From positions 70,703 through 134,702 of the forward strand of contig CAVXNM010000027.1 of the NCBI GenBank assembly GCA_963763115.1: a stretch of DNA of 64,000 nucleotides, written 5' to 3'. Source of the DNA: an uncultured Gammaproteobacteria bacterium (GTDB taxonomy: Bacteria; Pseudomonadota; Gammaproteobacteria; UBA9214). The number at the start of each line of letters is the position of its first letter. Position 1 is the first letter of the stretch. The position numbers were made by a program, and so were the translations under genes. Below are positions 1,544-16,945 of this stretch, in pieces. Under the pieces are notes generated by a model. The model saw only the letters and a list, made by a program, of their open reading frames with translations, was not told the origin of the DNA and made no database searches.

Positions 1544-2007
1544 GGTGTTACTCCTCCGCTTGCGGTGCCATCAGCGCCGTTTTTGTGAGCTGTCTTGAGC
1601 GCGTCGGCTACTTCCGGCGGCATGTATTTCTCGTCGTGTTTGGCGAGCACTTCCTCGGCGATGAACAGGTTGCCATCCTGCAGTCTTCCCCGCGCCACGA
1701 TGCCCTGTCCCTCGCGGAACAGGTCGGGCAGGATGCCGGTGTACTGCACCTTGATAGTCTCGGCGTAGTCGGTGATATCGAAGGTTACGGTCAACCCGTC
1801 CGGCTGGCGTTTGACGCTGCCGTTGGTGACCAGCCCGCCGACCCGGATCAGGTGTCCGGTCGGGGCCTCGCCACCCGCCACGGCGCTGGGGGTGTAGAAG
1901 AACATCAGGTTTTCGTTGAAGGCCTTGAGTGCGACGGCGATGGCGACGCCGACGCCGGCGACCATCATGGCAATCAGGATCAGGCGTTTTCTGCGTTTTG
2001 GTGTCAT
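1540..2007 (-). CDS. ccmE: Heme chaperone CcmE
   Basis: 155 aa with an N-terminal TM anchor, an OB-fold-like core and the C-terminal LAKHDEKYMPPEV motif (heme-binding His/Tyr). Sits in ccm operon order. Confidence 0.95.
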   Translation of the reverse strand: MTPKRRKRLILIAMMVAGVGVAIAVALKAFNENLMFFYTPSAVAGGEAPTGHLIRVGGLVTNGSVKRQPDGLTVTFDITDYAETIKVQYTGILPDLFREGQGIVARGRLQDGNLFIAEEVLAKHDEKYMPPEVADALKTAHKNGADGTASGGVTP

Positions 2008-2174
2008 GTGGTTCTCCTCGCGCGGCGTGCGCTGCGCGCGATATCAGCCAGCAGCTTCCTGCGCTGCCGCGCCGGCAGCAGGATATTGGCCAGCAGGACG
2101 ATCAGGGCGATGCCGTAGGACGTCCACACGTAGAACGCGTATCCGCCCATGTTCAGGAATTCATTCAGACTCAT
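2004..2174 (-). CDS. ccmD: Heme exporter protein CcmD
   Basis: Small single-TM protein (MSLNEFLNMGGYAFYVWTSYGIALIVLL...). ATG at 2174 overlaps the ccmC stop (ATGA), and the stop overlaps the ccmE start. The track ORF begins 27 nt upstream at 2201. Confidence 0.85.
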   Translation of the reverse strand: MSLNEFLNMGGYAFYVWTSYGIALIVLLANILLPARQRRKLLADIARSARRARRTT

Positions 2175-2908
2175 TTTGTCTCCGCAAGTTCTCTGACCCA
2201 CTGGGTGTTTCGCTCGCGCTCCAGCACTTCGCAGCGGGCGCGCATCAGTACCACCAGTGCATAATACAGTTTAAAGGCCACGGCCATCAGCAACAGGGGG
2301 ATCAGCATACTGATATCGATGGATGGCGCGCCGAGTTTGGTGACCGTTGCCCCCTGGTGAAGGGTGTTCCACCATTCCACCGAGAAGTGAATGATGGGAA
2401 TGTTGACCACGCCCACGATGGCGAGGATGGCGGTGGCGCGGGCCGCCGTGCGCTTGTCATCGACGGCGTTGTAGAGCGCGATGACGCCGAGGTAGAGGAA
2501 CAGCAGGATCAGCTCCGAGGTCAGGCGCGCATCCCATACCCACCAGGTTCCCCACATCGGCTTGCCCCAGAGCGAACCGGTGATCAGCGCGAGGAAGGTG
2601 AACGACGCCCCGATGGTCGCGCTGCTGATGGCGATCACTTCGGCCAGTTTGATGCGCCAGACCAGGCCGATAATGCCGGCGCCGGCCATGACCACGTAGA
2701 CGAACATCGACATCCATGCAGCCGGCACATGGATGAACATGATGCGGTAGCTGTCGCCCTGCTGGTAATCCGGCGGCGCCTTGATCAGGCCGTAGTAGAG
2801 TCCGGCAAGGATGAACAGCAGGCAGGATACGCCCAGCCACGGAATGAGCCGGCCGGCGATGTTGTAGAAGTATCGCGGCGAGGCCATCTTGTGAAAGAAC
2901 TGCATCAT
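2171..2908 (-). CDS. ccmC: Heme exporter/handling protein CcmC
   Basis: 245 aa polytopic membrane protein with WGKPMWGTWWVWDARLTSE (WWD motif). Collinear with E. coli CcmC as I remember it. Confidence 0.95.
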   Translation of the reverse strand: MMQFFHKMASPRYFYNIAGRLIPWLGVSCLLFILAGLYYGLIKAPPDYQQGDSYRIMFIHVPAAWMSMFVYVVMAGAGIIGLVWRIKLAEVIAISSATIGASFTFLALITGSLWGKPMWGTWWVWDARLTSELILLFLYLGVIALYNAVDDKRTAARATAILAIVGVVNIPIIHFSVEWWNTLHQGATVTKLGAPSIDISMLIPLLLMAVAFKLYYALVVLMRARCEVLERERNTQWVRELAETK

Positions 2909-2929
2909 GGGATTTTTTCCTGATTATTT

Positions 2930-3141
2930 CACCGCAGAGGCGCAGAGGACGCAGCGAGATTTATCAAACGGGTACCATGAAAACTTGATATATAAACTTT
3001 TGGAGCGGGCTTGCCCGTGAATGTGTCGTTCACCAAAACCGTATTCGCGGGCAAGCCCGCTCCTGCAGGTGAAAGCTCAATCATTCGTTGTGCCCAACTA
3101 TTCATTGTCTGGTTTCTCCGCGTTCTCAGCGTCTCTGCGGT
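2930..3141. repeat. MITE-like element of family A (CACCGCAGAG-type inverted ends) with a nested REP pair, inserted between ccmC and ccmB
   Basis: The left end 'caccgcagaggcgcagaggacgcag' (2930-) is inverted at the right end '...gcgttctcagcgtctctgcggtt' (to 3141). An internal inverted pair 'gagcgggcttgcccgtgaa...ttcgcgggcaagcccgctc' lies at about 3004-3072. Related copies occur at 4643, 36838, 51608 and 54374. Confidence 0.8.
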
Positions 3142-3164
3142 TGGCGCATTTATACCGCATCACT

Positions 3165-3848
3165 TCAACTCAGGCTGATGCGCAGAGCCGCAGCCGTAGC
3201 CGGCGGCGACAGGCTCAGGGCCAGGACCAGTAGCGCGCTGATGAACAGCAGGTGAGCGGAAACCGGCAGGCCGGCAGCGGCCGTATCAACCGCGCTTGCG
3301 GCGAAGATCAACAGCGGGACGTACAAGGGTAGCACGAGCAGTGACAGAATCATCCCTCCCTTGCGCAGTCCTACGGTCAGGGCGACACCCACGGCGCCGA
3401 GGAGGCTAAGCACCGGCGTACCCAGCAACAGGGTGAGCATCAGGATTCGGATGCCGTCCCCGGTCAGACCCAGCAGCACGCCCAGCAGGGGAGAGACCAG
3501 CAGCAGCGGCAGGCCGGTGACCAGCCAGTGGGCGATCACCTTGGCCAGAACCAGGATCGACACCGGATGGGAACTCAGCAGAAACTGTTCGAGCGTGCCG
3601 TCCTCGAAGTCGGAACGGAAGATATTGTCCAGCGACAGCAGGGCGGCGAGCAGGGCGGCTACCCAGATGACGCCCGGGCCGATGGCCTGCAGCAGGTTGG
3701 GGTTGGCGCCGACCCCGAGCGGAAACAGGCTGGTGACCAGAATGAAAAACAGCAACGGGTTGATCATCTCGGCACGGTGGCGCACCGCCAGGGTCAGGTC
3801 GCGTTTCAGCATCAGTGCGAACGCGCGGGTAAGGGAATCGGTACTCAT
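3165..3848 (-). CDS. ccmB: Heme exporter permease CcmB
   Basis: 227 aa, six predicted TM segments, typical CcmB N-terminus (LKRDLTLAVRHRAEMINPLLFF). Overlaps ccmA by 4 nt. Confidence 0.93.
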   Translation of the reverse strand: MSTDSLTRAFALMLKRDLTLAVRHRAEMINPLLFFILVTSLFPLGVGANPNLLQAIGPGVIWVAALLAALLSLDNIFRSDFEDGTLEQFLLSSHPVSILVLAKVIAHWLVTGLPLLLVSPLLGVLLGLTGDGIRILMLTLLLGTPVLSLLGAVGVALTVGLRKGGMILSLLVLPLYVPLLIFAASAVDTAAAGLPVSAHLLFISALLVLALSLSPPATAAALRISLS

Positions 3849-4483
3849 GCGGACAGGTTGATGTGATGCACCGGGGTGTTGACCAGATTGACGTTATGGT
3901 GCGAGGTCATCGCCAGCATGCCGCCTTTACGGGTATGTTCTTCCAGCAGAACCTCGATCAGTCCGATCCCGTGCACATCGAGCGAGGTAAACGGTTCGTC
4001 CAGGATCCACAGAGGCGCATCGACCACCAGCAGGCGGGCGAGCGCCAGCCGGCGCTGCTGCCCGGCCGAGAGATTGCGTGTCAACACGTCCTCGTAACCG
4101 TACAGGTCGACCTGTTCCAGCACCGTCTCCAGCGCCGATTCCCCGGGTTTGCCCAGGGCGCGCGCCACGGCGAGGTTTTCCAGTGGCGTCAGGTCCTGCT
4201 TGATGCCGTCGCGGTGCCCGACATAAGCCGTGTGTTCATGGTAGTCGGGCCCCAGGCGGCTGATGTTCTTACCGCACCAGTTCACGCTCCCGGCATCCGG
4301 CAGGCGGATGCCGCACAGGATGCGCAGCAGGGACGTCTTGCCGCTGCCGTTACGGCCTTCCAGCACGAGCGCCTGACCGGCTTCAAGCCGGAACGCCAGG
4401 TCACGAAACAGGATGCGGTCATCGCGAATGCACTCCAGGCCGTCGGCCTCGAGTGTCAGCATGTTGTCGAACGATCGGGTCAC
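3845..4483 (-). CDS. ccmA: Heme exporter ATP-binding protein CcmA
   Basis: Walker A GRNGSGKTS, ABC signature LSAGQQRR, Walker B LWILDEP. First gene of the ccm operon. Confidence 0.93.
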   Translation of the reverse strand: MTRSFDNMLTLEADGLECIRDDRILFRDLAFRLEAGQALVLEGRNGSGKTSLLRILCGIRLPDAGSVNWCGKNISRLGPDYHEHTAYVGHRDGIKQDLTPLENLAVARALGKPGESALETVLEQVDLYGYEDVLTRNLSAGQQRRLALARLLVVDAPLWILDEPFTSLDVHGIGLIEVLLEEHTRKGGMLAMTSHHNVNLVNTPVHHINLSA

Positions 4484-5160: not shown

Positions 5161-5279
5161 ATGACAATTATGACAGGATGGACTAGGGTTGTGGGAACTA
5201 CTTATGACAGTAATGTCATAGCAGGTAGTCGTGAGTCGTGTGTAATGACAATTTACCAGAAAAATAATGGGGCATAACA

Positions 5280-6695
5280 ATGGACGCTAAAACTACCCAT
5301 ACCGCACATTCGGTTCCTTTCGAACTGCAATCGCTGGTGGACTGTCACGAAAACCCGTTTGTCGTGGTCGATCGCGACTACCGTATCGTGGCGATCAACA
5401 GGGCCTATGAAAAACTCTACGGTGCCGGGCGAGAATTCGCCGTGGGTCAGTACTGCTACAAGGTCAGTCACGACAATGATGCCCCGTGCTGTCGCTCCGG
5501 TGAGGACTGTCTGCACGAGAAACTGTTCAAAAACGGTACCCAGACTTCCTGCCTGCATTTCCACTACGACGAACAACACCGCATGCACCAGGTGCGGGTG
5601 ACGGCCTATCCCTTGCGCAGTGGCGACGGGGAACTCTACATGGGGGAGCTGATCGAGCCGATTTCATCGCTGGAACAGGACAAGACGGGCTGCAGCCGCA
5701 TGGTGGGTCAGGCCCGTACGTTTACTGCCTGCATGGAACAGCTCAAGCTGGTGGCGGCGACCGCGGCGCCGGTGCTGCTGCAGGGCGAGACCGGTACCGG
5801 CAAGGAACTGGCCGCAAGCTTCATTCACAGCCACTCCCCGCGTCGTGAACGGCCCTTTCTCACCGTGGACTGTACCTCCTTGACAGACAGCCTTTTCGAG
5901 GCGGAGGTCTTCGGCCATGCCCGTGGTGCGTACACCGGCAGCGTCGGAGAGAAAGCCGGCCTGTTCGAACAGGCCAACGGCGGCACCCTGTTTCTCGATG
6001 AAGTGGGCGAATTGCCCATGAACCAGCAGGCGAAGCTTTTGAGAATACTGGAAACCGGGCAATACCGGCGGGTCGGGGGGCGCGGTAATCGCAAGGTTGA
6101 TGTGCGCGTTATCTGCGCCACCAACCGGCACCTGTGGGAGGCCGTCCAGGCGACCAACTTCCGCGAGGATCTCTATTACCGTATCGCCTGTCTGACCGTG
6201 CGCCTGCCGAATCTGCGCGAGCGTCTCGAGGACATACCGGTGCTGGCGAACAGCCTGCTGGAACCGGTCAACCTCACGATGAGGCGGCGGTTTGCGCTGG
6301 CGCCGGATGCCATGGACCGTCTGAAGACCTATCACTATCCCGGCAACATACGTGAGTTGCGCAATATCCTGTACGTCGCCGCGACCCACAGTACCGATGA
6401 AATGATCCACGCCGGCGTGATTGACACCGTGATTGGTCAAATGACGTGCAACCAGGCGTCGCCGAAGTCGTCAGCGGACGAGTCGGCCACGCCGCCTGCG
6501 CCCGCGGAATCTCCAGTCGGACCAATTCAGACACGGCGGAACGGTAACGGATGCAGTTCGCTCGTCGACGTCGAGGCGCGGCACATCAGGGAACTGCTCG
6601 ACCGTTATACCGGCAACCGCCGCCGTGTGGCCAGCGATCTCGGAATCAGCGAACGCACCCTGTATCGCAAATTGAAGAAGTACGGGTTGACCTGA
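5280..6695 (+). CDS. Sigma-54-dependent transcriptional activator (bEBP): N-terminal Cys-rich PAS-like sensor, AAA+ sigma-54 interaction domain, C-terminal Fis-type HTH; no receiver domain
   Basis: Walker A GETGTGKE, Walker B LFLDEVGEL, GAFTGA-loop variant GAYTGS, C-terminal HTH 'RRRVASDLGISERTLYRKLKKYG'. The N-terminal 130 aa is PAS-like and carries CYKVSHDNDAPCCRSGEDC. Confidence 0.9.
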   Translation: MDAKTTHTAHSVPFELQSLVDCHENPFVVVDRDYRIVAINRAYEKLYGAGREFAVGQYCYKVSHDNDAPCCRSGEDCLHEKLFKNGTQTSCLHFHYDEQHRMHQVRVTAYPLRSGDGELYMGELIEPISSLEQDKTGCSRMVGQARTFTACMEQLKLVAATAAPVLLQGETGTGKELAASFIHSHSPRRERPFLTVDCTSLTDSLFEAEVFGHARGAYTGSVGEKAGLFEQANGGTLFLDEVGELPMNQQAKLLRILETGQYRRVGGRGNRKVDVRVICATNRHLWEAVQATNFREDLYYRIACLTVRLPNLRERLEDIPVLANSLLEPVNLTMRRRFALAPDAMDRLKTYHYPGNIRELRNILYVAATHSTDEMIHAGVIDTVIGQMTCNQASPKSSADESATPPAPAESPVGPIQTRRNGNGCSSLVDVEARHIRELLDRYTGNRRRVASDLGISERTLYRKLKKYGLT

Positions 6696-6823
6696 GTACC
6701 CGCAGAACTGCCTGCTAACGTTTTCAGGATGCGGTAGCCGAGGAAGATCAGAATAGAGTAATGCAGTCGTCGGTCCAGCTGTTTACGGGAATGCCCATCT
6801 CATCTGCCACAATAACGGACTGG

Positions 6824-6860
6824 CAGATATGACAGGTAACCTGTCATATCTGTCATGACA
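6824..6860. promoter_or_regulatory. Candidate upstream activator sequence: 14-1-14 palindrome followed by a TGTCATGACA palindrome
   Basis: 'cagatatgacaggt a acctgtcatatctg' spans 6824-6852 and 'tgtcatgaca' spans 6851-6860. The same ATGACA(GG)/TGTCAT half-sites recur at 5161-5250, upstream of the activator gene. Confidence 0.5.
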
Positions 6861-6976
6861 TGCCGGTGCGATAGACAACCCGCAATTGAATATGTTTGCT
6901 GATAAGAATTAATTATCTGGTTGATATTCCAGTCAGAATTGTTACAGCACGTCGCTCTCTTTTATGTGTTGGTAGT

Positions 6977-6991
6977 TGGTATATTAATTGC
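6977..6991 (+). promoter_or_regulatory. Candidate sigma-54 (-24/-12) promoter
   Basis: 'TGGTATATTAATTGC' has GG at 6978-6979 and GC at 6990-6991, exactly 10 nt apart (GG-N10-GC). It lies about 120-150 bp downstream of the palindromes with AT-rich DNA in between, the classical UAS-to-promoter geometry. Confidence 0.45.
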
Positions 6992-7638
6992 CTTGTTCTT
7001 TATACACGGAATTACTCGTTTGTATCCCGGTGGCCGGGGTTGAGAATATCACCGAGAGGCTTTGGGATATGAAGAATTATTACATTACTCAAACTACACG
7101 TTATCTTCACATTTCATTCGTTGGTGTTTCCTGACGGGCTGTTCCGGCGTTTAGTGAGGTGTATTGCGCAGGCAGTGTGGTATTTTGCAAAAATTGTGCT
7201 AGTGTCTTACGAACAAAGGGTCGACCCGGATATAACGACATCAGCAACGACCGTAGAAAATAACGTAGATTCCCGCAGGAAATATAGTTCCATAACAAGT
7301 GCGGGAGATTGAGGAGCAGAATTGCATCATGGGCAGAAAACTCATTCCTGGAATGAGGAACGGGTCTTTCTCGTTCGCATTCATTAACCCTGTGTCGTGG
7401 CGCTCACCGTCCGGGTCGGTCTCGAAATCGCCCAAGGCGGAAATGGCGGCAGCGTCAGGTACGCGAACTGCCGCTCCGGCAAACTCAAAACCCGATTACA
7501 GACATCCCACCTCAAGATCCAGCGCATCGGCGGATGCACCAGGCAATACACGACCAGTCGTGACCATCACGGTTCTCTCAATGCTTAACATGAAGGATGT
7601 ACCAATGCCCAGGCAGACATTTGTCAGGAGGAGCAATA

Positions 7639-10600
7639 ATGAAAATGCCATCAGGTAGCTGTACCTTTTTTGCACGCCTAGTTATCTCCATAGTTACCGG
7701 AATCGCACTGGCGGCCCTTGCCGCGACGGCGGATGCCAAGAAGAATAAACCACCCGTGCCGCCGTTCGGTTGCTCGATCATGGACCCCGGTGAGATCCTA
7801 ATGAATACCCCGGTGGATATGACCGCCATGCTCGAAGGTGGTGCCACGCCATACAAGAAGGTGAAGTGGAAATTCGCCAAGAAGAAGAAGGCAAATCCGA
7901 ATAAGGTGGAGACAACGGATGTGGAACCGGGCGCCGTCACGGCGACGACAACCTTCAGTAAAGCCGGATCGCAAAACGTCGTCCTGATCGTCAAGGATCA
8001 ATATAAGAAGACCTGCAAGGCCAGTTTGACTGTGGCAGTCGTCGAGGAGTCGCCGCCTGTCACTGGCGTGCCTACGGCACGCGGTGACACCTACGCGACC
8101 CCGATCGGGAAAGAGCTGACGGTGGGGGCTTCGCGCGTCTCGGGCGTGCTCTACAATGACTTCGATACCGACCCGGACACCGGCGCGAATCTCGGCAATG
8201 CGGGTCTTACCGTCGTCCAGGATAGTGACCCGGCGCATGGCACGGTACACCTGCATGCCGACGGTTCGTTTACGTATACACCCGACGGGACTCTAAACGA
8301 CAACGATAACGACAGTTTCACCTATCACGCCGTGGATAGCGACGCCAACTCATCTGACGTGGCGATTGTGAATATCCACATTACGGCCGACCAGCCTGAC
8401 TTCAAGATCCTGATGAACTATGAACTCGGCATGCACTGCACCGGCTTCGAGTTCTCCTACTGTTGTGTGCTGCCCCCGTACAACTCGATCGTGGCACAGG
8501 TGGTGAAGTCACAGACACCCGGTTTCCCGACTTCCAATGCGGACTATCCGCGACTGCTTACGGCCGACCCGGACAACGGTCTGGATGGACTGGGCCGCGA
8601 GACCGTGCTGCGCGATTACGACAGTGACGGGAACTTCAACAAGTACTACCTGGAGTATTACCACGACATCATGCCGCGCCTTGAAGGCAACATGCCCGGT
8701 TCATTCAATTCTTCGGCGGGGAAGGACACCCTCATCAGCGCCGTCGAGGGCAACTCGCTGCTCTACTGGAATACCCCGTATGATTCGGCGCAGGTGGATA
8801 CCGACGGGTCGATCACCGGGGTGCCCGGCAAGCTGGTCACCGGCACCTACGCCGGGGAATTTAATGTAGTGTTGGGTGATGGGTCTTTCCAGACCCCCTG
8901 TAAAACCGGTCCGGACGGGTGTACCGACAACTTCGCCAATGGCTGGCTGAACCACTTCTATATCTACCAGGACCTGGAAGGGAGCAATCCCGCCGACACC
9001 AGCCTGGAGATCGACAAGATGCGTCTCGGGGTGGCCAACATGGTCGAGTATCCATCCGATTCCGGCGCGGCCCTGCAGCCTATGGGACCGACCGGCAACG
9101 ATGCGGGATTCGATAACGTGCTGACCTTCTCCGGCGACACCGGCACGGTGGTGTACACCCAGATGAAAGTGCTGGAGAACCTGCCGATCATGCTGACCGC
9201 ACCGAAGATCTGGGAGGCCCTCGGCCTGCCGCTGACGCCGTTCGAGGATTCGATCGACTTCTTCGCCGATCCGGGTGCGGTGGACGAGGATACGATCCGT
9301 CCCTTTGTGGCGATGAAGGCGCAGTTGTTTGAAGCCAACTGCGATGAATCGACGGGCGACTGCACCAAGGGTGCTGCGGTTATGAGCAATGGACGGCCAG
9401 TGCTTGGTTTCGGCTCGGCGCCGATCGATATCCCGAACTGTGAGCGTTGTCACTCGGCACCGGCCTATCAGGCGGATGGTGTCACGCCGAACGTCAACAG
9501 CCCGAGTTACGTGAGGCGACAGGACGGACCAGACCCTTACGTTGGACCGTCCGGCGAGACCCTCGAGGCGATGATCGATCTGGAGGTCAACTACTGGAAG
9601 GCCTTCTACGACCTGGATACCACCATGGGTGACACGGACTGGTATGCGCGGCTCAAGGGTGCGGCCATCAGTATCGAGGTCATGCATGACTTCGATAACG
9701 GTACCAACTTCACCGCCAACTATCCGACCTCCGGTCTGAATCCGGACGGCACGCCTGAACCACCCAATGACATTTTGGGCATGCCAGCTGAAAAGGCCAT
9801 GATCATGCAGAACACCCGCATGGGTCATGAATCGGTCATCTGCCAGAAGTGCCACGCCGACAACGTGATCGCGGTAGTCAAGTCGGCGAACATCGGCGCC
9901 AGCGATGGCCCCCTCGTCCCGCCCATCTCGGAGGCGATCCATAACGCTCACAGGGCAAACAGCGCGGGTGGAGTGATCGTCTTCAACGACGCCCTCGGGC
10001 GCTTCGGCGGCTGCCAGGGCTGTCACCCGGCGCACCGCTCCGACGGCGTGATGGACAACTATCCCATCACGGTTAACGGTGATAACGTCAGAGCCGAAAG
10101 CGACAACCGCCTGGGTGCGGGTGGCTGCTTCGTCGGCCGTGACGTGCACTCCAACCCCTTGAAGGACGTGGATGGAGCGGAGACGCCGGAGCACCTGAAT
10201 ACGGTGGGGCAGTGGCTGAAGGACAATGTCGCGCGCAACCAGGCGGGACTGGGTAACAGCGATGAGGACTACCGGGGCATCTGGTGCACCAACTGCCACA
10301 CCCAGCTCAGCCAGGAGCTGTGGCGCACCGAGGACTGCAATGACCTGATCCACAGCAATCCAAACCAGGTCTCGTCTCCGGATTGCCTGGTCAACCCGCG
10401 TGCGGCGGGACCCGGCCTCAGTGATGTCGCCGCTGCAGTCGGACTGACCGAGCAGGAGGCGATCAACTACCTTGATCCGAAGAACCCGGACGTGCAGCCT
10501 CCAGGTGTGCCTCAGGTCACGGTGGACAGGACCCATGCGGCCTGGGATCCGTTGATTGACGATGCCAACTTGGCGACCATCGAGGTGGCCGCGGCAGATT

Positions 10601-11652
10601 CCCCCGGGAGCTGTGCTCCCCTGTCAAGCGTGTTCAACGCAACCTTCAACGTCAATGTCTGTGTCAGTCTGGACGGGGATGGGGATCCGAGTGTCAATAT
10701 CCTGACCTTCTGCACGACGGACGACTGTGTGAAACAGGTGAATGATCCGGCAAACAGAACCGTGCCGGGCAGCTGGCGATATCCCGAAGCGGGTACCGTC
10801 GACCGTGTTTCGGGCTTCGCCGGTACGGGGACAGTTGGTGCGGCGGTGCCCTTCTCGGCAGCGGACGACGCCCGCGACCATTGGCTGTCAGCGGGTGAGC
10901 CCCACTGCGCGGATTGCCATGCGGCACCCTACACGGAGCAGAGCGGTAACATCAACCCGTTCCCGCCCTTCAACTACCCGGCGAAGGCGGGCCTGAATCG
11001 CTACTCGTTCGGCCATCAAGGCATCACTTGCCAGGGCTGCCACGAGTCGATCCACGGTCTCTATCCGGTGGGGCCGGCGATCGATAACACGACCTACGCG
11101 CAGGCGGCGGCACTGAACGCAGACGGCTCCCATGGTCCGCTGAAGTGCGGTACCTGCCACACGGTCAATGGCAACGGCATCCCGAGCTGGATTTCCCCAT
11201 TAGGTGACGGAGCCGTCGGCAACCAGATCAACGGCAGTTTCGACAATGCCGTGGGTTGGGCGCATACCTACACGGCCGAGGCCAATGTGCTCAACACGAC
11301 ATGCCAGAACTGTCACGGCGTGGATGGTGATTTTGACAGCAGCACTGTCAACACCAACAGCGTCCCGGCGGACTGGACCAAAGTCGCTAGTCACGAACCG
11401 GCATTCCTGAAACATTCATTCAGGGGATATACTTCGCGGCTGATGATGGACAATGCCGAGACGCTCGTCTCGGGGTCGGTCGACGGAACAACCGACGGTT
11501 CGGACGGCGTCTGCCTCGGTTGTCATGCAAACTTCAGTGGTGGAGTGAGTTGCAGTGACGGGTGGAAGCAGCACCTGACCCAGGGACGCGTCGCCGAATC
11601 GGTCTGGGAACAGGTCTCCGAAATGAAGACCGGCTCACTCTGCGGCTGGTAA
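7639..11652 (+). CDS. Large secreted multiheme cytochrome c (nine CxxCH sites) with N-terminal Ig-like/cadherin-like domains
   Basis: RBS AGGAGG about 6 nt before ATG 7639 (the track ORF starts at 7597). Signal peptide ...IALAALAATADA|KK. A PKD/Ig-like segment is followed by a cadherin-like segment (GVLYNDFDTDPD...GSFTYTPDG...DSFTYHAVD). CxxCH sites sit at ORF residues 615, 749, 806, 897, 1104, 1145, 1184, 1236 and 1306 (CERCH, CQKCH, CQGCH, CTNCH, CADCH, CQGCH, CGTCH, CQNCH, CLGCH). Confidence 0.9.
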   Translation: MKMPSGSCTFFARLVISIVTGIALAALAATADAKKNKPPVPPFGCSIMDPGEILMNTPVDMTAMLEGGATPYKKVKWKFAKKKKANPNKVETTDVEPGAVTATTTFSKAGSQNVVLIVKDQYKKTCKASLTVAVVEESPPVTGVPTARGDTYATPIGKELTVGASRVSGVLYNDFDTDPDTGANLGNAGLTVVQDSDPAHGTVHLHADGSFTYTPDGTLNDNDNDSFTYHAVDSDANSSDVAIVNIHITADQPDFKILMNYELGMHCTGFEFSYCCVLPPYNSIVAQVVKSQTPGFPTSNADYPRLLTADPDNGLDGLGRETVLRDYDSDGNFNKYYLEYYHDIMPRLEGNMPGSFNSSAGKDTLISAVEGNSLLYWNTPYDSAQVDTDGSITGVPGKLVTGTYAGEFNVVLGDGSFQTPCKTGPDGCTDNFANGWLNHFYIYQDLEGSNPADTSLEIDKMRLGVANMVEYPSDSGAALQPMGPTGNDAGFDNVLTFSGDTGTVVYTQMKVLENLPIMLTAPKIWEALGLPLTPFEDSIDFFADPGAVDEDTIRPFVAMKAQLFEANCDESTGDCTKGAAVMSNGRPVLGFGSAPIDIPNCERCHSAPAYQADGVTPNVNSPSYVRRQDGPDPYVGPSGETLEAMIDLEVNYWKAFYDLDTTMGDTDWYARLKGAAISIEVMHDFDNGTNFTANYPTSGLNPDGTPEPPNDILGMPAEKAMIMQNTRMGHESVICQKCHADNVIAVVKSANIGASDGPLVPPISEAIHNAHRANSAGGVIVFNDALGRFGGCQGCHPAHRSDGVMDNYPITVNGDNVRAESDNRLGAGGCFVGRDVHSNPLKDVDGAETPEHLNTVGQWLKDNVARNQAGLGNSDEDYRGIWCTNCHTQLSQELWRTEDCNDLIHSNPNQVSSPDCLVNPRAAGPGLSDVAAAVGLTEQEAINYLDPKNPDVQPPGVPQVTVDRTHAAWDPLIDDANLATIEVAAADSPGSCAPLSSVFNATFNVNVCVSLDGDGDPSVNILTFCTTDDCVKQVNDPANRTVPGSWRYPEAGTVDRVSGFAGTGTVGAAVPFSAADDARDHWLSAGEPHCADCHAAPYTEQSGNINPFPPFNYPAKAGLNRYSFGHQGITCQGCHESIHGLYPVGPAIDNTTYAQAAALNADGSHGPLKCGTCHTVNGNGIPSWISPLGDGAVGNQINGSFDNAVGWAHTYTAEANVLNTTCQNCHGVDGDFDSSTVNTNSVPADWTKVASHEPAFLKHSFRGYTSRLMMDNAETLVSGSVDGTTDGSDGVCLGCHANFSGGVSCSDGWKQHLTQGRVAESVWEQVSEMKTGSLCGW

Positions 11653-11700
11653 CTGGAGGGGTTCCGCCCGTTCAGCGAGATGGAGCGGGCACACCAACCA

Positions 11701-11735
11701 ATGGAGGGGAAACGTGTTTCCCCTCCATTTCTTAA
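11701..11735 (+). terminator. Rho-independent terminator after the multiheme cytochrome gene
   Basis: Perfect hairpin 'atggaggggaaac gt gtttcccctccat' followed by 'ttctt'. Confidence 0.75.
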
Positions 11736-11840
11736 CAGAGTCAGCAATCCTCCGGGATAGTTGTTCACGGCGCGGCCAACGGCTGCCTGCCCGGTGGCAC
11801 CCTGAGGTTTGAGATTCAGCAAACGATGAGGGCAACAATA

Positions 11841-13340
11841 ATGAAAGTAATACTTGCGTTTATGACCGCGCTGCTCATGCTCCCGGTTTGCGCGACCGGC
11901 ACGTTGGCCAGTGCCGCCGACACGGAGCCCAGGGCCACTATGGTCGATGATGTGATCGCCCGGGTGGGCGATCAGACGATCACCTTCAGCGAGATCAACA
12001 CCGCGCTCAACAGCTCGGCGATCGTCGGCTTATCCATCCCGGCACTGGGCACACCGGAGCGGGACACGACGCGGATTGTGCTGCTGGACCGGTTCGTCAG
12101 CGCCAACCTGCTGTATCTCGATGCGCTCAAGCAGGGTGTCGACAAGGATCCGGGCTACCAGAGGGCGATCACCCGCTTCTCCGATGCGATCCTGGCCGGG
12201 CTTTATCGGAAACGTAACCAGGGGGGCGACATTCCAATCAGCGAGGAAGAGGTACAGGCCTACTACAAGCAGTATGTGGCGCCGGATACGGAATTGACCG
12301 CTGATCTGCATCTGCAGATCGAATCGACACTGCGCCGGCAGAAACTCCATGAACGGCTGGCAATGGCCGAGAAGACCTTGCGTGACGATGTCAAGGTGGT
12401 GATCCATCCGGAAAATCTGGCGCTCAAGGATGACGGGTACCGTGCGGACAGCACACCGCTGGCCGAGGTCGGTACGGAAACCATCACCTGGGGTCAGGTC
12501 AGTGACAGGATCATTGCCGCCGGCAAGGGGGCGATGATGACCGACCCGTCGGCCTCGGAGGACCAGGCGCGCCGGGATGCCCTGGAACACCAGATCGACC
12601 TGCGTATCATGGTGCAAAAGGCCAGGTCGGCGGGAATCGAGGACGACCCGTTGTACAAGAGACGGATGAAGGAGTACCAGAAAACGCTGCTGATCAATCG
12701 GCATCGCGAGCAGCTGGCAAAGACCATGGAACCCACGGCACAGGAACTCAAGGCCTGGTATGAAGCGAACAAGAAGCGCTTCGTCGTGCCGGAGGCTCGC
12801 AAGCTGCAGATGGTCGTCGTCAAGACCAAAGAGGAAGCCGAGAACCTCAAGGGCAGGATCGAAGCGGGTGAGCTGACCATCTACCAGGCGGCACGCGATC
12901 ATTCCATCGCCGCAAAGGCCAAGCAGGATCTGGGCGAGGTGGGCTGGGTGAAGCAGGGTGAGGTGGTGCCGGCGCTGGATCAGGTGATTTTCACGCTGGG
13001 ACCGGATGAGATCGGTGGTCCGGTGGAGACGCCGGCCGGCTGGCACCTGGTGAAGGTGCTCGAGGTGAAAGAGGCCAAGTTCACGGACTTCTACGATGAG
13101 ACGACGCGCAAGCAGGTTCGGCGCAAGTATCTGCATGAGAAAATGGATGCCTACACCGCGGAACTGCGCAAGCACGAGTTTCCGGTGGAGGTTTACCAGG
13201 AGCGCCTGGTGCAGCTCGAGCAGCAGGAGGCGGACATGGTGAAGTCACTGGCGGAGAAGGCTAAGCAACCGGGGTCAGTGACACAGAAACGCATCGAGGA
13301 ATTGCAAAAGCTCATGAAACCACCGCCACCGCCCATGTGA
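11841..13340 (+). CDS. Secreted PpiC/parvulin-type peptidyl-prolyl cis-trans isomerase (SurA/PpiD-like)
   Basis: Signal peptide MKVILAFMTALLMLPVCATGTLASA. Rotamase core '...LQMVVVKTKEEAENLKGRIEAGE...DLGEVGWVKQGEVVPALDQVIFTLGPDEIGGPVETPAGWHLVKVLE'. RBS GAGGG 8 nt before ATG 11841 (the track ORF starts at 11826). Confidence 0.85.
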   Translation: MKVILAFMTALLMLPVCATGTLASAADTEPRATMVDDVIARVGDQTITFSEINTALNSSAIVGLSIPALGTPERDTTRIVLLDRFVSANLLYLDALKQGVDKDPGYQRAITRFSDAILAGLYRKRNQGGDIPISEEEVQAYYKQYVAPDTELTADLHLQIESTLRRQKLHERLAMAEKTLRDDVKVVIHPENLALKDDGYRADSTPLAEVGTETITWGQVSDRIIAAGKGAMMTDPSASEDQARRDALEHQIDLRIMVQKARSAGIEDDPLYKRRMKEYQKTLLINRHREQLAKTMEPTAQELKAWYEANKKRFVVPEARKLQMVVVKTKEEAENLKGRIEAGELTIYQAARDHSIAAKAKQDLGEVGWVKQGEVVPALDQVIFTLGPDEIGGPVETPAGWHLVKVLEVKEAKFTDFYDETTRKQVRRKYLHEKMDAYTAELRKHEFPVEVYQERLVQLEQQEADMVKSLAEKAKQPGSVTQKRIEELQKLMKPPPPPM

Positions 13341-13560
13341 GGAGTGACAGTTCAGACAGGGGTCTAACCGGCATAAACGATTCACCCCTGTTCAGTCCTG
13401 GCAATCTGCGGAGTGCGGGCACGCGACCCTTCACCAGGCCCTCCGGCACGGTGATCAATACCACACACGATCGGGACAACGACAACGCCGGCAACCGATG
13501 GTAACGGTAACGTGTATTCTACGCTCCGTGGCATCACCCTGGCGAACTGAGCGCGGTCGG

Positions 13561-14088
13561 TTATTTCGCCTCAAGATTAGATGCCCGTGAGCTGCCGATC
13601 AGCTGCTCGATGGTCTCAATCATCTCCGGGTCATCCCAGTTGCGCGGTCCGTACGCGACATAGTGAACGCGGCCTTGCGGATCGACCAGAAAACTGGTCG
13701 GATAGAGATCGATTCCCCAGTCGTAAGCGGTCTGGCCTTCACGGTCCAGCAACAGGGGAAAATGAACTTTCGCCCTGGCGGCGAACTTCCACACCGTGCC
13801 GGGCGATTCCTCGACATTGACAGCGAGGAGGGTGAAGGGTTTTCCGGTCATGGCCTCCTGCAGGCGCTGCAGGCTGGGCATCTCCATCACACAGGGTCTG
13901 CACCAACTGGCCCAGAAATTCACCAGCACCACCCGGCCGCGATAATCCTGCAGCGCATGGACCTTGTGTCCCAGGTCCTCCAGTGACAGCGCGGGTGTCC
14001 GGGTGAAGCCACGGTAGGGCTCCAGTTGTCCTGCCGCAGCGCAGGACAGATGCAACAACATCAGCAGGCCAGTGAGGAATTTGATCAT
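13561..14088 (-). CDS. TlpA/ResA-like periplasmic thiol:disulfide oxidoreductase (thioredoxin fold)
   Basis: 'VVLVNFWASWCRPCVMEMPSL' carries a WCxxC motif. Probable start at the internal ATG 14088 gives the signal peptide MIKFLTGLLMLLHLSCAAAG. The 72 codons upstream in the track ORF look non-coding. Confidence 0.85.
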   Translation of the reverse strand: MIKFLTGLLMLLHLSCAAAGQLEPYRGFTRTPALSLEDLGHKVHALQDYRGRVVLVNFWASWCRPCVMEMPSLQRLQEAMTGKPFTLLAVNVEESPGTVWKFAARAKVHFPLLLDREGQTAYDWGIDLYPTSFLVDPQGRVHYVAYGPRNWDDPEMIETIEQLIGSSRASNLEAK

Positions 14089-14231
14089 GAGAGTTCCGGT
14101 AATTGCCTTTATGCCGCCGGCCCCGATCTGCATCACAGACGTCGATTGCCCAGGGCAGGCAGGACGCACAACCAGGGTCCGGCTTCGGTCTGCGCGCACT
14201 ATGTCAACACAAAGCCGTAACCCCGCCGTAC

Positions 14232-14546
14232 ATGAAGCATATCCAAAATCAGAGCACCCCGCCACGCGGCCGGATCCGGGTTGCCGCGCTTCTGCTGGCG
14301 GCACTGGCCGGTGGGGCCGTCATGGTAGTGGAGCTGGATGTGGCGCGCAGCCTGACGCCGGTACTCGGCGGGTCCATTTCGGTCCGGGCCATCGTCATCA
14401 TCACCACAATGCTGGCGTTGATCCCGGTGGTTGTCCTGCGACCGGGTCCAGGCGTGACGTCCCTGATTATCAGCGGCATACTGAAAAGGCCCAGCAGCCG
14501 GGCTCCGGGACCGGGAAGCGCATCGGGGAATTCCAGAAACTGCTGA
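14232..14546 (+). pseudogene. Probable gene remnant: N-terminal TM fragment resembling spermidine-synthase-family membrane proteins, fused to unrelated sequence
   Basis: 'RVAALLLAALAGGAVMVVELDVARSLTPVLGGSISVRAIVIITTMLALI' resembles the first TM pair of that family and then homology stops. In another frame the last 70 nt (14478-14548) are about 70% identical to the 3' end of the PPIase gene (13255-13322). Confidence 0.3.
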
Positions 14547-14693
14547 AGCAGTAAGCGCGTTATAATGGTACCCGGGATGCGGGAATAACGGTGCAGGGAG
14601 AAGATGAGACCGGGAACCGGTCGTGAGTCTGGGCTGCCATGCGCCGTTTGCAGGTCGAAAGGTCGGGCCCGTAACTCCTGAGCACGAAGAGTC

Positions 14694-14718
14694 GGATTCC
14701 CGCTTTCGCGGGAATGAC
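14694..14718. repeat. REP-like palindrome, family C ('ggattcccgctttcgcgggaatgac')
   Basis: Perfect stem tcccgc/gcggga. A second copy at 39313-39341 is nested inside the family B MITE. Confidence 0.7.
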
Positions 14719-14768
14719 CGGCATAATCAGAACGTCCGTGATTCGGCGTCGATCGGTAACGTCGCCGG

Positions 14769-15233
14769 ATGAGGCGGGAAGATAGACACATGCGGATGCC
14801 ACTCATAACCTGGTATACACTTTCGCGCTTGACTGCCGGCGTCTTCCTGCTGGTCATTGGTGCACTGGCTGTTCAGGCCGACGATCTCATGTCACCGGTC
14901 ATACCGGCAGCGGAAGTCAAGGAGCGGCTGGACACGCCACAAGCGCCGCTCATGGTGGACCTGCGCACACCGCCGGAGTTCGCTGTTGCGCACCTGCCCG
15001 GCGCCGTCAACATTCCGCTGTCGGAGCTGGTGAAACGTCTGGATGAAGTGCGTCCTGCCGAGGACCATGACCTTCTCATCTATTGTTTCAACGGCTCCCG
15101 GACGCGGCAGGCCGAGCCGCTGCTCTATGCGCATGACATCAGTAATTTTTACCACCTCGAAGGTTCGCTCGAGGGATGGCTGCTGAAAAACTATCCGATC
15201 GAGAAGGGCGGCGTGCACCGAAAGACCTGGTAA
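14769..15233 (+). CDS. Rhodanese-domain sulfurtransferase, membrane-anchored or secreted
   Basis: Active-site loop 'IYCFNGSRTRQ' (CxxGxR), an N-terminal hydrophobic segment, and 'PPEFAVAHLPGAVNIP' typical of rhodanese. The exact start is uncertain (14769, 14790 or 14796). Confidence 0.8.
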   Translation: MRREDRHMRMPLITWYTLSRLTAGVFLLVIGALAVQADDLMSPVIPAAEVKERLDTPQAPLMVDLRTPPEFAVAHLPGAVNIPLSELVKRLDEVRPAEDHDLLIYCFNGSRTRQAEPLLYAHDISNFYHLEGSLEGWLLKNYPIEKGGVHRKTW

Positions 15234-15377
15234 ACGGGAATGACCGCCATCCGGTGCATGTCCCAGTCCAGACTCTCGACCGGTTCCCGGTCTCTCTGCC
15301 TCCCTGCACCGCCACCCCTGAATTTTTTAACGTGGTCGATGCAGTTTGAGTGGTTGCGATTACATGCGCAAGCTGAT

Positions 15378-15517
15378 TGCAGGAGCGGAATCGCCCGCGA
15401 ACTTTCTTGGTTAGTCACCACCGTGTTCGCAGGTGAACCCGCTCCTTCATGGTAATTCGATAATTCGTGGTGCCCTGGATTTGATTGTCTTACTGCAGGA
15501 GCAAGCCCGCTTCGACA
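15378..15517. repeat. REP-like elements, family D (TGCAGGAGCGG...CCCGCGAA type)
   Basis: Inverted pair 'tgcaggagcggaatcgcccgcgaac' (15378-15402) and 'gttcgcaggtgaacccgctcc' (15425-15445), plus a single copy 'ctgcaggagcaagcccgcttcgac' (15494-15517). Same family as 3004-3072. Confidence 0.7.
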
Positions 15518-15548
15518 AAAAGATTGAATGCGGATTTTTCGGATCGTC

Positions 15549-16007
15549 CTATTTTTCGGTGTCCGCACCGATCATCTGCTGCAACTCGCCGATGTGCTCC
15601 TGCAGGCGCTGCATGGCCAGCTGGTTGCGCTGCTGGACCAGCTCGGGCAGGCGCTCAAGCACCTTCTGGCCGGTGGGCGAACTGTAAAAGGCGTTCATCT
15701 CGTCGAGTTCCGCCTCGGTGAAAGTTTGCAGGTACATGTCCGTTAGATCGACTTTCAGGGCTTGCCAGCCGATGTATTTCCGGAGGAAGGCGCGCAGCAC
15801 CTCCCTGTGCTCCGTCAGGGCGGGATTCTGCGTGATTTGCAGGGCGAGAACACCGTCGACGCTGTCCTCGATCAACCGCTGCATATGCGTCAGTTCGAAG
15901 AGCCTTGCCACGGCCTCCCGGTGGCTGTCCGGTCCGGCGTGAGGCGGGGTTGGGCAGGCAAAAACCAGCAGCAAGGCCAATATTCCGGTCAGGGTGCGGG
16001 AATTCAT
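15549..16007 (-). CDS. Periplasmic DUF2059-like protein
   Basis: ATG 16007 with RBS GAGGAG. Signal peptide MNSRTLTGILALLLVFA, and 'ELDEMNAFYSSPTGQKVLERLPEL' typical of DUF2059. Confidence 0.7.
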   Translation of the reverse strand: MNSRTLTGILALLLVFACPTPPHAGPDSHREAVARLFELTHMQRLIEDSVDGVLALQITQNPALTEHREVLRAFLRKYIGWQALKVDLTDMYLQTFTEAELDEMNAFYSSPTGQKVLERLPELVQQRNQLAMQRLQEHIGELQQMIGADTEK

Positions 16008-16293
16008 GTGCAGTCTCCTCGGTCGACTATCGCGCAACAGGCAGAAGTGCTACTGTTGGTCGACGATAATAATAAAGAAAAGGCCATAGCGTGAATTTCG
16101 AAATGAATCTGTCTTGCAGGAGCCCGTTCCTGCAAGGAGAAGTATCAATCGTTCGAGGTTCTGTAACACAAATAACCAAAAACTGTTGATCGCTTGGCCC
16201 GGTCATCCTGCACAAGCCGTCTTGCTGTTTCGAAATGTTCAGGAGGACGTATCGGCAGGAAGTTGGCGGCGCTATTTTCACCAGGAGGCATTC

Positions 16294-16752
16294 ATGCAAC
16301 TCGACAAGCCGCTCCGGACAGCATCCGGAAAAAGACCCGGATCAGGGGATGCCACCTGCACAGAGCCGTGTGTGACGGGTAGGCTGTCACAATCGCTTGC
16401 GCTACTGATGCTCGGCGGAATTCTCGGCGTTGGCGGTGCCTTGGGAACGGCAAATGCCACACAGTTCAACCCGCCCGGGCTGGATGGTTACAGCCTGAGC
16501 GATGAACACGATGCCGATGGCGATGGCGATGGCGTCAAGGAGACGCATGTCCAGCAGTATTTCAACTCGAACGGTGATAGCATCTACAGCATGACCACCA
16601 ATGGCCATCTGTGGGCCTGGAGTCTGGAGACGAAGGGTGTATCGACCAGCGGACCGATGAACTACGTCATACGCGACAGCGATTGCGACGGCGTGTTCGA
16701 CGAGGTCTACAGTCTGGAGGACAAGTATTACCTCCCCGACTGCGTCAAGTAG
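16294..16752 (+). CDS. Hypothetical secreted or membrane-anchored protein with an acidic DADGDGDG motif
   Basis: RBS AGGAGG 5 nt before ATG 16294, a hydrophobic segment LALLMLGGILGVGGALGTANA, and coding-like composition. I recognise no family. Confidence 0.55.
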   Translation: MQLDKPLRTASGKRPGSGDATCTEPCVTGRLSQSLALLMLGGILGVGGALGTANATQFNPPGLDGYSLSDEHDADGDGDGVKETHVQQYFNSNGDSIYSMTTNGHLWAWSLETKGVSTSGPMNYVIRDSDCDGVFDEVYSLEDKYYLPDCVK

Positions 16753-16839
16753 TGGTGCCGAGAAGAGGACTTGAACCTCCACGGGGTTACCCCCACTAGC
16801 ACCTGAAGCTAGCGCGTCTACCAATTCCGCCATCTCGGC
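16753..16839 (-). tRNA. tRNA-Leu (anticodon CAG)
   Basis: The reverse complement GCCGAGATGGCGGAATTGGTAGACGCGCTAGCTTCAGGTGCTAGT...GAGGTTCAAGTCCTCTTCTCGGCACCA folds as a class II tRNA. Anticodon loop is TTCAGGT and CCA is encoded. Confidence 0.93.
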
Positions 16840-16945
16840 CGTGCAGCCGCGAACTCTACCCGCAGATATTGTGCTTGTCAATTTGCGGCTGGCGGGCACA
16901 CTTTAGCCTTCATTTAGCCTTCATAAAGAGTAAAATGCCGGTCCC

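Follow-up and report, generated by a model that had tools for sequence, protein, structure and literature searches.

What kind of system is encoded around a giant secreted multihaem cytochrome whose gene is flanked by a regulator, a folding factor and thiol- and sulfur-handling proteins, and what would such a cytochrome do? The question is raised by a 64,000-nt stretch of DNA from an uncultured gammaproteobacterium (GTDB lineage UBA9214; assembly GCA_963763115.1, contig CAVXNM010000027.1, positions 70,703 to 134,702), hereafter called the window. An earlier model-made reading of the letters and open reading frames (ORFs), the sequence-only reading, had placed next to the cytochrome maturation (ccm) genes a receiver-less sigma-54 enhancer-binding protein (EBP), a secreted nine-haem protein, a secreted parvulin-type peptidyl-prolyl isomerase (PPIase) downstream on the same strand with a hairpin in between, a convergent periplasmic WCxxC oxidoreductase, a scar region and an exported rhodanese, and had proposed a separately regulated system for producing and maturing one unusual cytochrome. 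Domain and motif scans recovered every one of these elements, with no receiver domain in the EBP and with ccmA, B, C, E and F alongside (Table 1). Judged by comparison of related sequences, the locus is a conserved module consisting of the cytochrome, a private parvulin, usually a thioredoxin-fold reductase, and sigma-54 control. The best explanation of the whole, which we hold with modest confidence, is a sigma-54-controlled conserved module that makes one extracytoplasmic nine-haem cytochrome with a catalytic role, probably in sulfur chemistry.

The cytochrome ORF is open from 7597 to 11652 on the plus strand (1351 codons) and contains nine CxxCH motifs (ORF residues 615, 749, 806, 897, 1104, 1145, 1184, 1236 and 1306), where by our estimate about 0.03 would be expected by chance from its Cys and His content. 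The start is almost certainly the ATG at 7639, which stands behind an AGGAGG sequence, is conserved in the closest relative (locus L003), coincides with the start of the public gene call (1337 aa) and gives a Sec-type signal peptide, MKMPSG...ATADA, that ends ATADA/KK and has no lipobox. A motif scan found no CxxCK and no C-x(5-20)-CH motif. With multiple CxxCH motifs in an exported protein, the product is a c-type multihaem cytochrome with predicted haem attachment. It is a secreted, acidic, multi-domain protein in which the signal peptide is followed by a PKD/Big_9/cadherin-like region, a haem-free beta domain of ~350 aa holding the motifs LGMHC...YCC...LPP, four haems, a beta-sandwich and five haems. 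In Pfam it is matched only through its N-terminal Ig-like domains, c7 and MtrC-II/IV being hit below threshold; PF22113 (MtrC domain II/IV) scores 28.3 bits on the C-terminal five-haem part against a cut-off of 30, and no stretch passes.

Next, the neighbourhood was compared across 78 related loci, in which the window proteins were traced by tblastn and by clustering of called ORFs. A PPIase gene followed on the same strand, no more than 900 nt downstream, at 62 of the 65 cytochrome 3' ends with enough flanking DNA, and at each of the three exceptions another cytochrome-PPIase pair was present in the same locus. Genomes with two or three cytochrome paralogues had one diverged PPIase for each of them. 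The pairwise identities of the two proteins were correlated (r = 0.92, 46 pairs), the cytochrome core being the most conserved protein of the module (mean identity 63% vs 45% for the PPIase). Within single genomes, paralogous cytochromes were 59-64% identical and their PPIases 42-49%; such pairs are to be read as old in both partners and co-duplicated. The neighbourhood, whose conservation the sequence-only reading had made the touchstone of its proposal, is thus retained in relatives, both in the PPIase gene and in the accessory genes within 1 kb. The scar, too, turned out to hold a piece of PPIase: 22 aa encoded there are 73% identical to residues 477-498 of the window PPIase (tblastn, E = 1e-4; blastn, 74% over 65 nt), a longer PPIase fragment occupies the same position in L027, and a second PPIase gene is intact in L013 and L017. 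On this alignment the scar is a relic of a second PPIase gene that is still intact in relatives.

The density of TlpA-like, rhodanese and PAS-sigma-54 activator genes was raised 6- to 40-fold within 1 kb of the cytochrome-PPIase pair. TlpA-like genes numbered 2.3 per 10 kb in this zone vs 0.05-0.13 beyond 2.5 kb, rhodanese genes 1.1 vs no more than 0.04 beyond 2.5 kb, and activator genes 0.87 vs ~0.15 at 5-7.5 kb. The TlpA-like gene lay upstream or downstream, on either strand, in at least five arrangements, among them TlpA> CYT> PPI> in Thiodiazotropha, EBP< CYT> PPI> CYT2> TlpA> in the Sulfuricaulis type and EBP> [TlpA<] CYT> PPI> [TlpA<] Rhod> in Thiogranum-like loci (arrowheads give gene direction). 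So many different gene orders argue against simple inheritance of the neighbourhood. The window TlpA-like ORF is open from 13561 to 14304 on the minus strand, with a probable start at 14088 (MIKFLTG...); its product has an N-terminal hydrophobic signal. The protein matches Redoxin (82 bits) and AhpC-TSA (80 bits) in Pfam and is therefore an exported thioredoxin-fold protein with a WCxxC motif; since its scores against the NCBIfam ResA, TlpA and DsbE models fall below the equivalog cut-offs, it is not CcmG. The rhodanese (PF00581, 59.9 bits) has a signal peptide and the CxxxxR catalytic-Cys loop CFNGSR of a sulfurtransferase, whose activity is predicted. Export signals were found on all module products.

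The predicted regulation of the module is also conserved. The activator matches PF00158 (214 bits) and HTH_8 (44 bits), as an enhancer-binding protein does, with predicted activity; its loop reads GAYTGS in the window, GAFTG[CSA] in orthologues and GSFTGS in one of them, all variants of the canonical GAFTGA. Orthologous activators encoded beside the cytochrome in Thiogranum-like, Sulfuricaulis-type and betaproteobacterial loci share the PAS motif C-x3-SH-x4-PC-x3-GE[DE]CP, and this Cys/His-rich domain suggests a metal or redox sensor. In L028, L063 and the locus of Methylomarinovum, the sigma-54 activator is instead of the receiver type and is accompanied by a histidine kinase gene. Sigma-54 boxes of the form TGGCA[CT]-N5-TTGC[ACT] lie 33-293 nt 5' of the cytochrome ORF in twelve other loci (TGGTAT in L064), besides the window and L003. 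In the window, a 0.9-kb non-coding gap separates the activator gene from the cytochrome ORF; the candidate promoter at 6977, TGGTAT-N5-TTGCC, is the best GG-N10-GC match of this intergenic region, and L003 has TGGCATATTTAATGCC (TGGCAT-N5-ATGCC) at the aligned position. The only other strict sigma-54-box match in the window is TGGCATGAGGATTGCA at 31516-31531 on the minus strand.

Most loci also have two or three TGACA-N4-TGTCA palindromes 60-150 nt 5' of the sigma-54 boxes. The exact palindrome occurs 29 times in 1.28 Mb, and 18 of these 29 sites fall within -900 to +100 of a cytochrome start, a 24-fold enrichment. Palindromes are present upstream of the cytochrome in L003, L005, L011, L012, L013, L022, L025, L026, L032, L047, L053, L054, L059, L068 and L072, and the TGACA and TGTCA halves of the window repeat at 6821-6855 are conserved in L003. 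TGACA-N4-TGTCA is therefore a likely candidate for the binding site of the PAS-Cys sigma-54 activator. Together, the conserved -24/-12 boxes, the conserved candidate palindrome and the orthologous PAS-Cys activator strengthen the proposal of separate sigma-54 regulation that had been made from the window alone. Downstream of the candidate promoter, the last ~350 nt of the leader (7290-7640) are 81% identical to L003 vs 69% further upstream. This segment showed no codon periodicity, no Rfam match and ordinary fold stability (z = 0.12); the absence of 3-periodicity in its mismatches with L003 ruled out a coding leader.

Between the cytochrome and PPIase genes, the hairpin noticed earlier proved to be a conserved feature of the family. 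In the window it has a 13-14 bp stem (about -21 kcal/mol) and a weak T tail (TTTCTT), and a simple terminator scan missed it; in most related loci the T run is good. Over the 64 kb of the window, the motif GGAG[GA]G[GA]-loop-[CT]C[CT]CTCC is found a single time, and in related DNA 56 of 62 copies follow a cytochrome stop codon at a distance of 22-63 nt (median 51). Conversely, 56 of 70 cytochrome stop codons are followed by the hairpin, and in 37 of those 56 a T run comes next. The stem sequence GGAGGGGAA/TTCCCCTCC is itself conserved, beyond the structure, across lineages whose proteins are only ~50% identical. The loop varies in length, not in multiples of three, and stem changes are compensated, as in L034 and L047, indicating that the region is not coding. 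A first, sequence-variable GC hairpin usually precedes the conserved one. A looser search caught generic GC hairpins and was discarded. The Methylomarinovum locus has the cytochrome-PPIase pair and a hairpin, with neither the GGAGGGG motif nor a strict -24/-12 box. The conserved hairpin is best read as a terminator or attenuator that would set a high cytochrome-to-PPIase ratio. Separately, we note that its arms resemble Shine-Dalgarno and anti-Shine-Dalgarno sequences.

The PPIase itself has a signal peptide, a weak SurA_N match within a long SurA-like N-terminal region, Rotamase_2 and Rotamase domains above the Pfam threshold (78.8 and 60.5 bits) and a coiled, Pro-rich C-terminus; NifM is its third-best NCBIfam match (57.7 bits, below the cut-off). 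In the dual-His motif of parvulins, the second His is conserved and the first (Par10 His8) is Gln in 57 aligned PPIase orthologues. With the first dual-His residue replaced, isomerase activity is uncertain and a chaperone role is equally possible. In one homologue, P0272 (1217 aa), the parvulin protein is fused in frame to the short type of cytochrome described below, with no second signal peptide; a second candidate fusion, P0300, looked like gene-calling read-through and was rejected.

We then searched for known relatives of the cytochrome. A database search returned 584 homologues, and those listed share a core of ~1000 residues (52-91% identity) that runs from about ORF residue 265; in front of this core the N-termini vary between Ig, PKD and cadherin-like domains, and the names among those listed say nothing beyond 'Ig-like' or 'VCBS'. 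Among species-representative genomes, the carriers are Thiogranum, uncultured Ectothiorhodospiraceae, Candidatus Thiodiazotropha (lucinid symbionts), Sedimenticolaceae, Sulfuricaulis/Sulfurifustaceae and one betaproteobacterium, along with a few metagenome-assembled genomes labelled Desulfobacterales, Nitrospirota, Methylomirabilis or Bacteroidota. Two distant branches were recognized. The first is a seven-haem paralogue of ~790 aa, 34% identical to the window type and without adhesin or Ig domains, whose gene directly follows the PPIase gene in Sulfuricaulis-type loci (L047:8171-10519; also L028, L032, L053, L054, L056 and L059). This type is widespread in Nitrospinae, Gallionellaceae and methanotrophs, the last including the cultured Methylomarinovum caldicuralii (L079, AP024714.1), and is present in Magnetospira thiophila; non-sulfur organisms are thus among its hosts. 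The second, a ~1000-aa 'PKD domain-containing protein' with ~23% identity and more than 3400 database matches, includes Solemya and Lamellibrachia symbionts and in several loci adjoins an FKBP-type PPIase with a long coiled coil (L071:20056-22980 with L071:18179-19660; also L007 and L025). By sequence, this is a second, independent cytochrome-PPIase pairing that involves another PPIase class.

Across all three branches, the invariant elements are six haem motifs, several histidines, the LGMHC and LPP motifs early in the haem-free domain and a further non-haem cysteine in GGCFVGRDVHSN; LGMHC, LPP and C580 (core numbering) remain unchanged even at 22-25% overall identity; the Cys-Cys of the haem-free domain is invariant in two branches. 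Neither NCBIfam nor Pfam has a family for the core, and phmmer and profile searches of the PDB with the cytochrome returned no relative, only a chance c7 or PKD fragment. A first AlphaFold model, made with 40 close homologues, was unusable (pLDDT 50). The second, from a 73-sequence alignment spanning three subfamilies (pLDDT 79, pTM 0.85), showed a beta-rich domain without haems, followed by two helical regions, one with four haems and one with five, on either side of a beta-sandwich. Foldseek comparison of this model with the PDB gave nothing below E = 1, a negative that is not absolute, as haem proteins are poor in regular secondary structure. A phmmer search of 1.84 billion representatives with the haem-free domain yielded 165 matches, apparently all of the same family and fragments of it, and no link to another domain. 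A literature search for the cytochrome family found nothing usable, and the MccSep pentahaem selenoprotein (2026) was rejected as a relative, having five haems and no sequence match. These searches place the cytochrome in what is, on present sequence comparisons, a large unnamed superfamily without a characterised or structurally solved member.

Several known systems nevertheless resemble the locus in part. The octahaem sulfite reductase genes of Wolinella (MccA-MccB) and Shewanella (SirA-SirB) reportedly lie beside a dedicated periplasmic PPIase gene, which our literature search did not confirm, and in MccA conserved non-haem cysteines, which bind Cu, matter at the active site. The likeness lies in a periplasmic multihaem enzyme beside a dedicated PPIase, in conserved non-haem cysteines and in the sulfur setting. 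However, the window cytochrome has no sequence or fold similarity to these enzymes (PDB phmmer, profile and Foldseek searches), its nine haem motifs are all canonical CxxCH with no CX15CH or CX17CH-type motif, no FeS or NrfC/NrfD-like partners and no dedicated haem lyase were seen among its conserved neighbours (general ccm genes adjoin it in one clade), its PPIase is a SurA-like parvulin and its regulation is by sigma-54. In the Uet cluster of Candidatus Tenderia electrophaga and some Gallionella, the tetrahaem UetA gene lies beside that of the peptidylprolyl isomerase UetB, together with the undecahaem UetJ. It shares with the module the adjacent cytochrome and PPIase genes, chemolithoautotrophic proteobacterial hosts and nearby cytochrome-biogenesis genes, but its beta-barrel porin, trihaem c7 proteins, cupredoxin and NHL-repeat proteins are absent from the conserved neighbour clusters here, and the window cytochrome has a large conserved haem-free domain; this distinction was drawn from cluster content. 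A SEEP-SRB1/Desulfuromonadales operon whose function is not known encodes 16-haem and 26-haem cytochromes, a beta-propeller protein and a PPIase. It likewise centres on large secreted multihaem cytochromes with a peptidyl-prolyl isomerase, but differs in haem numbers, beta-propeller partner and host groups, with no homology detected.

The MtrC/OmcA/MtrF cytochromes, too, are secreted and alternate beta-rich with multihaem domains, and PF22113 weakly matches the C-terminal five-haem part of the window protein. They differ in that the window cytochrome has 4 + 5 haems (9, not 10), stays below the Pfam cut-off, has no lipobox, no MtrAB-like genes among its conserved neighbours and no Foldseek match, and so falls outside that family. 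PPIase genes kept beside, and thought to serve, a single metalloprotein client are known from NifM-NifH and from MofB-MofA, in which the client is a multicopper oxidase; these clients are a cytoplasmic NifH or a multicopper oxidase and no cytochrome, whereas the window PPIase is periplasmic with a SurA-like N-terminal chaperone region. In the TlpA/ResA/CcmG family, ResA and CcmG reduce the CxxCH cysteines of apocytochromes and TlpA reduces copper-site cysteines. The window protein shares the exported thioredoxin fold and WCxxC motif but is a paralogue separate from the ccm operon, below the equivalog cut-offs given above. In its logic, the locus thus resembles other cases in which a large extracytoplasmic redox protein has a private PPIase, here with an uncharacterised cytochrome family at the centre.

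From these elements we infer maturation roles for the PPIase and the TlpA paralogue, on the basis of what their protein families do, and propose the following sequence of events. A redox or metal signal at the Cys/His-rich PAS domain would cause the activator to bind the palindromes and open the sigma-54 promoter. The apo-cytochrome would be exported by Sec. During attachment of its nine haems by the general Ccm system, the TlpA-like protein would keep the cysteines of its CxxCH motifs, and the invariant non-haem ones, in the reduced state. The parvulin, expressed more weakly from a promoter of its own or by read-through past the hairpin, would fold the large beta-rich haem-free domain, which bears the invariant LPP. 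Cys-580 (core numbering) and the invariant His-Cys of LGMHC would form the active site beside a haem. An inorganic sulfur species would be the probable substrate, as suggested by the physiology and taxonomic distribution of the hosts, the rhodanese and the conserved cysteines, and electrons would travel along the haem chain to or from the respiratory chain.

The function of the cytochrome is the part of this explanation that carries the lowest confidence. We tentatively favour a catalytic oxidoreductase, in the periplasm or at the cell surface, over a pure conduit, which we consider somewhat unlikely. In the latter case, the protein would be a non-catalytic surface conduit for extracellular electron transfer with minerals, electrodes or partner cells, like MtrC/OmcA or the Uet proteins, with its Ig-like domains used for attachment and its accessory genes for maturation alone. 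A secreted, acidic, multi-domain cytochrome with a variable PKD, cadherin or Big_9 N-terminus fits such a role, and so do the modelled order of beta domain, four haems, beta-sandwich and five haems, which recalls MtrC, the weak PF22113 matches, an MtrC-like multihaem gene (923 aa) that separates the PPIase gene from the TlpA gene in L001, L006 and L078, the PEP-CTERM protein encoded upstream in five loci, the sediment-dwelling hosts and the presence of PPIase genes alongside the Uet and SEEP-SRB1 conduits as well. On the other hand, no porin or periplasmic decahaem partner was found among the conserved neighbour clusters of related loci, the signal peptide is not of the lipoprotein type, no Foldseek or sequence match links the protein to MtrC, OmcA, MtrF or UndA, the conservation of the haem-free domain and the non-haem Cys and His residues is unusually strong, and forms without adhesin domains are common. 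A catalytic function is further favoured by a cytochrome core more conserved than any helper, by a haem-free domain that is confined to the superfamily and contains the invariant His-Cys, Cys-Cys (two branches) and Cys residues, and by a short branch that has no adhesin domains and occurs in non-sulfur organisms too.

Two narrower alternatives concern the helpers. That the functional unit is the cytochrome-PPIase pair only, with the TlpA-like, rhodanese, DUF2059 and ccm genes being general housekeeping genes for envelope thiols, sulfur and cytochrome biogenesis that are kept nearby by shared ancestry in one gammaproteobacterial clade, seems to us unlikely. It would explain why the rhodanese is found directly 3' of the PPIase in a minority of loci (13 of 61) and ccmA in just 6 of 78, and it suits the related lineages in the set, for instance ~14 Thiodiazotropha loci with one identical arrangement, as well as the mere ~30% identity of Sulfuricaulis-type TlpA-like proteins to the window protein. 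However, TlpA-like genes stay within 1 kb on either side and strand in at least five arrangements, rhodanese density falls steeply away from the pair, and in the distant type from Sulfuricaulis and betaproteobacteria the pair likewise has a thioredoxin-fold gene next to it. The linkage proposed earlier for the flanking genes is thus supported for the TlpA-like, rhodanese and activator genes within 1 kb, with the rhodanese adjacency limited as stated, and fails to extend to ccm: adjacency of ccmA to the activator recurs only in the close relatives L003, L010, L020 and L061, so that, as far as sequence comparison goes, it is lineage-specific and confined to the Thiogranum-like clade. Quite unlikely, in our view, is a parvulin that acts as a stoichiometric partner of the cytochrome (subunit, tether or export escort) and not as a transient folding catalyst. 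The P0272 fusion, the tight co-variation of the two proteins, the Gln in place of the first catalytic-motif His in 57 aligned orthologues and the long SurA-like N-terminal region with its coiled, Pro-rich C-terminus would all suit such a partner, but the conserved terminator-like hairpin between the genes predicts lower PPIase expression, the PPIase evolves faster than the cytochrome, and the convincing fusion is a single one.

Returning to the sigma-54-controlled module with a catalytic cytochrome, several observations weigh against it. Beyond the rhodanese count, many of the loci come from related lineages, so the synteny counts are not phylogenetically independent events. The -24/-12 box of the window matches the consensus weakly (TGGTAT), is ~660 nt away from the start codon and, taken alone, is not significant (two matches in the window vs 0.63 expected). 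The parvulin may be a chaperone without isomerase activity. Finally, the variable Ig/PKD/cadherin N-terminus fits a surface electron conduit, and the weak MtrC domain II/IV match, the MtrC-like multihaem genes of close relatives (cluster c32) and the PEP-CTERM neighbours point in the same direction.

A wider proposal, which we regard as fairly unlikely but worth stating, takes all LGMHC-domain cytochromes (the window type, the ~790-aa type and the ~1000-aa PKD type, with several thousand sequences including those of clam and tubeworm symbionts) as a new catalytic multihaem superfamily. Its members would have a haem-thiolate or haem-copper centre in the haem-free beta domain, would carry out an extracytoplasmic sulfur (or nitrogen or metal) transformation in sulfur-oxidising and other chemolithotrophs, and would each be matured by a PPIase of their own, parvulin or FKBP, with the window type placed under a dedicated sigma-54 regulon and a sequence-specific 3'-UTR (untranslated region) hairpin.

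The features of the locus are collected in Table 1. The stretch between the TlpA-like and rhodanese genes is gene-poor. An Rfam scan of 6600-17000 returned the tRNA-Leu as its sole match, and the housekeeping genes rnr, a SpoU-family rRNA methyltransferase gene, dnaB, alr, radA, ffh and htpG follow beyond it.

Table 1. Annotated features of the module and its surroundings, in window coordinates
Feature	Position	Strand	Basis or remark
ccmF (partial), ccmE, ccmC, ccmB, ccmA	2-4483	-	Divergent from activator gene; NCBIfam equivalog/subfamily matches above cut-off for CcmA, B, C, E and CcmF/NrfE
Candidate autoregulatory palindrome TGACAGTAATGTCA	5205-5218		Exact TGACA-N4-TGTCA, 75 nt 5' of activator start
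Receiver-less sigma-54 enhancer-binding protein, 471 aa	5280-6695	+	Pfam and NCBIfam: PAS, Sigma54_activat, AAA lid, HTH_8
17-nt inverted repeat TGGCAGATATGACAGGT/ACCTGTCATATCTGTCA (TGACA-N7-TGTCA), candidate upstream activator sequence	6821-6855		~130 nt before -24/-12 box
Candidate sigma-54 promoter TGGTATATTAATTGCC	6977-6992	+	GG-N10-GC spacing correct
Long leader	6993-7638	+	Alignment with L003
Secreted nine-haem c-type cytochrome (predicted), 1337 aa	7639-11652	+	Motif count, Pfam, homologues, AlphaFold model
Hairpin AATGGAGGGGAAAC-GT-GTTTCCCCTCCATT, likely terminator or attenuator	11700-11729	+	Between cytochrome and PPIase genes
Periplasmic SurA-like parvulin (PpiC-type) chaperone/PPIase (predicted), 504 aa	11826-13340	+	Pfam; synteny
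TlpA/ResA-like periplasmic thiol-disulfide oxidoreductase (predicted), WCRPC	13561-14088	-	Pfam Redoxin/AhpC-TSA; ORF open to 14304
PPIase C-terminus relic ('scar')	14483-14548	+	tblastn/blastn against PPIase
Exported single-domain rhodanese (predicted), CFNGSR loop	14769-15233	+	Pfam
Exported DUF2059 protein	15549-16037	-	Pfam; 13 loci
Conserved hypothetical protein, no family match	16114-16752	+	C-terminal ~100 aa kept in 15 loci
tRNA-Leu	16753-16839		Rfam

Several further genes recur around the module. The DUF2059 protein (13 loci, Thiogranum-like clade) is encoded mostly within 1 kb of the pair, and the module is accompanied by this protein in 13 loci and by the unannotated 16114-16752 protein in 15, for the most part no more than 2.5 kb away. 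In L001 (15561-18332), L006 and L078, an extra multihaem cytochrome of 790-930 aa is encoded between the PPIase and TlpA genes; this gene is absent from the window, and the domains of the L001 protein are CarboxypepD_reg, c554 and, with significant scores, MtrC-II/IV. Directly upstream of the cytochrome, five loci (L002, L005, L020, L035 and L071) have a gene for a PEP-CTERM protein of ~230 aa, a neighbour that hints at the cell surface or the matrix as its location. L047 (12205-15084) and L059, both from Sulfuricaulis, encode a few genes further downstream a 959-aa protein that, by its N-terminal Cys motif, looks like a putative molybdopterin oxidoreductase.

Large multihaem cytochromes drive much of the microbial cycling of sulfur, nitrogen and metals, and few of their families have a known structure or function. 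The window type has hundreds of relatives and the wider superfamily thousands, in hosts that include sulfur oxidisers abundant in sediments as well as chemosynthetic symbionts, both those of tubeworms and those of lucinid and solemyid clams. The module offers an experimental handle on them, with helpers for co-expression, a regulator and its candidate DNA site, and cysteines to mutate, and Methylomarinovum caldicuralii is a cultured carrier of the shorter paralogue type. That big secreted cytochromes recur together with private PPIases looks like a rule for multihaem biogenesis in general, one that, if true, could improve heterologous cytochrome production.

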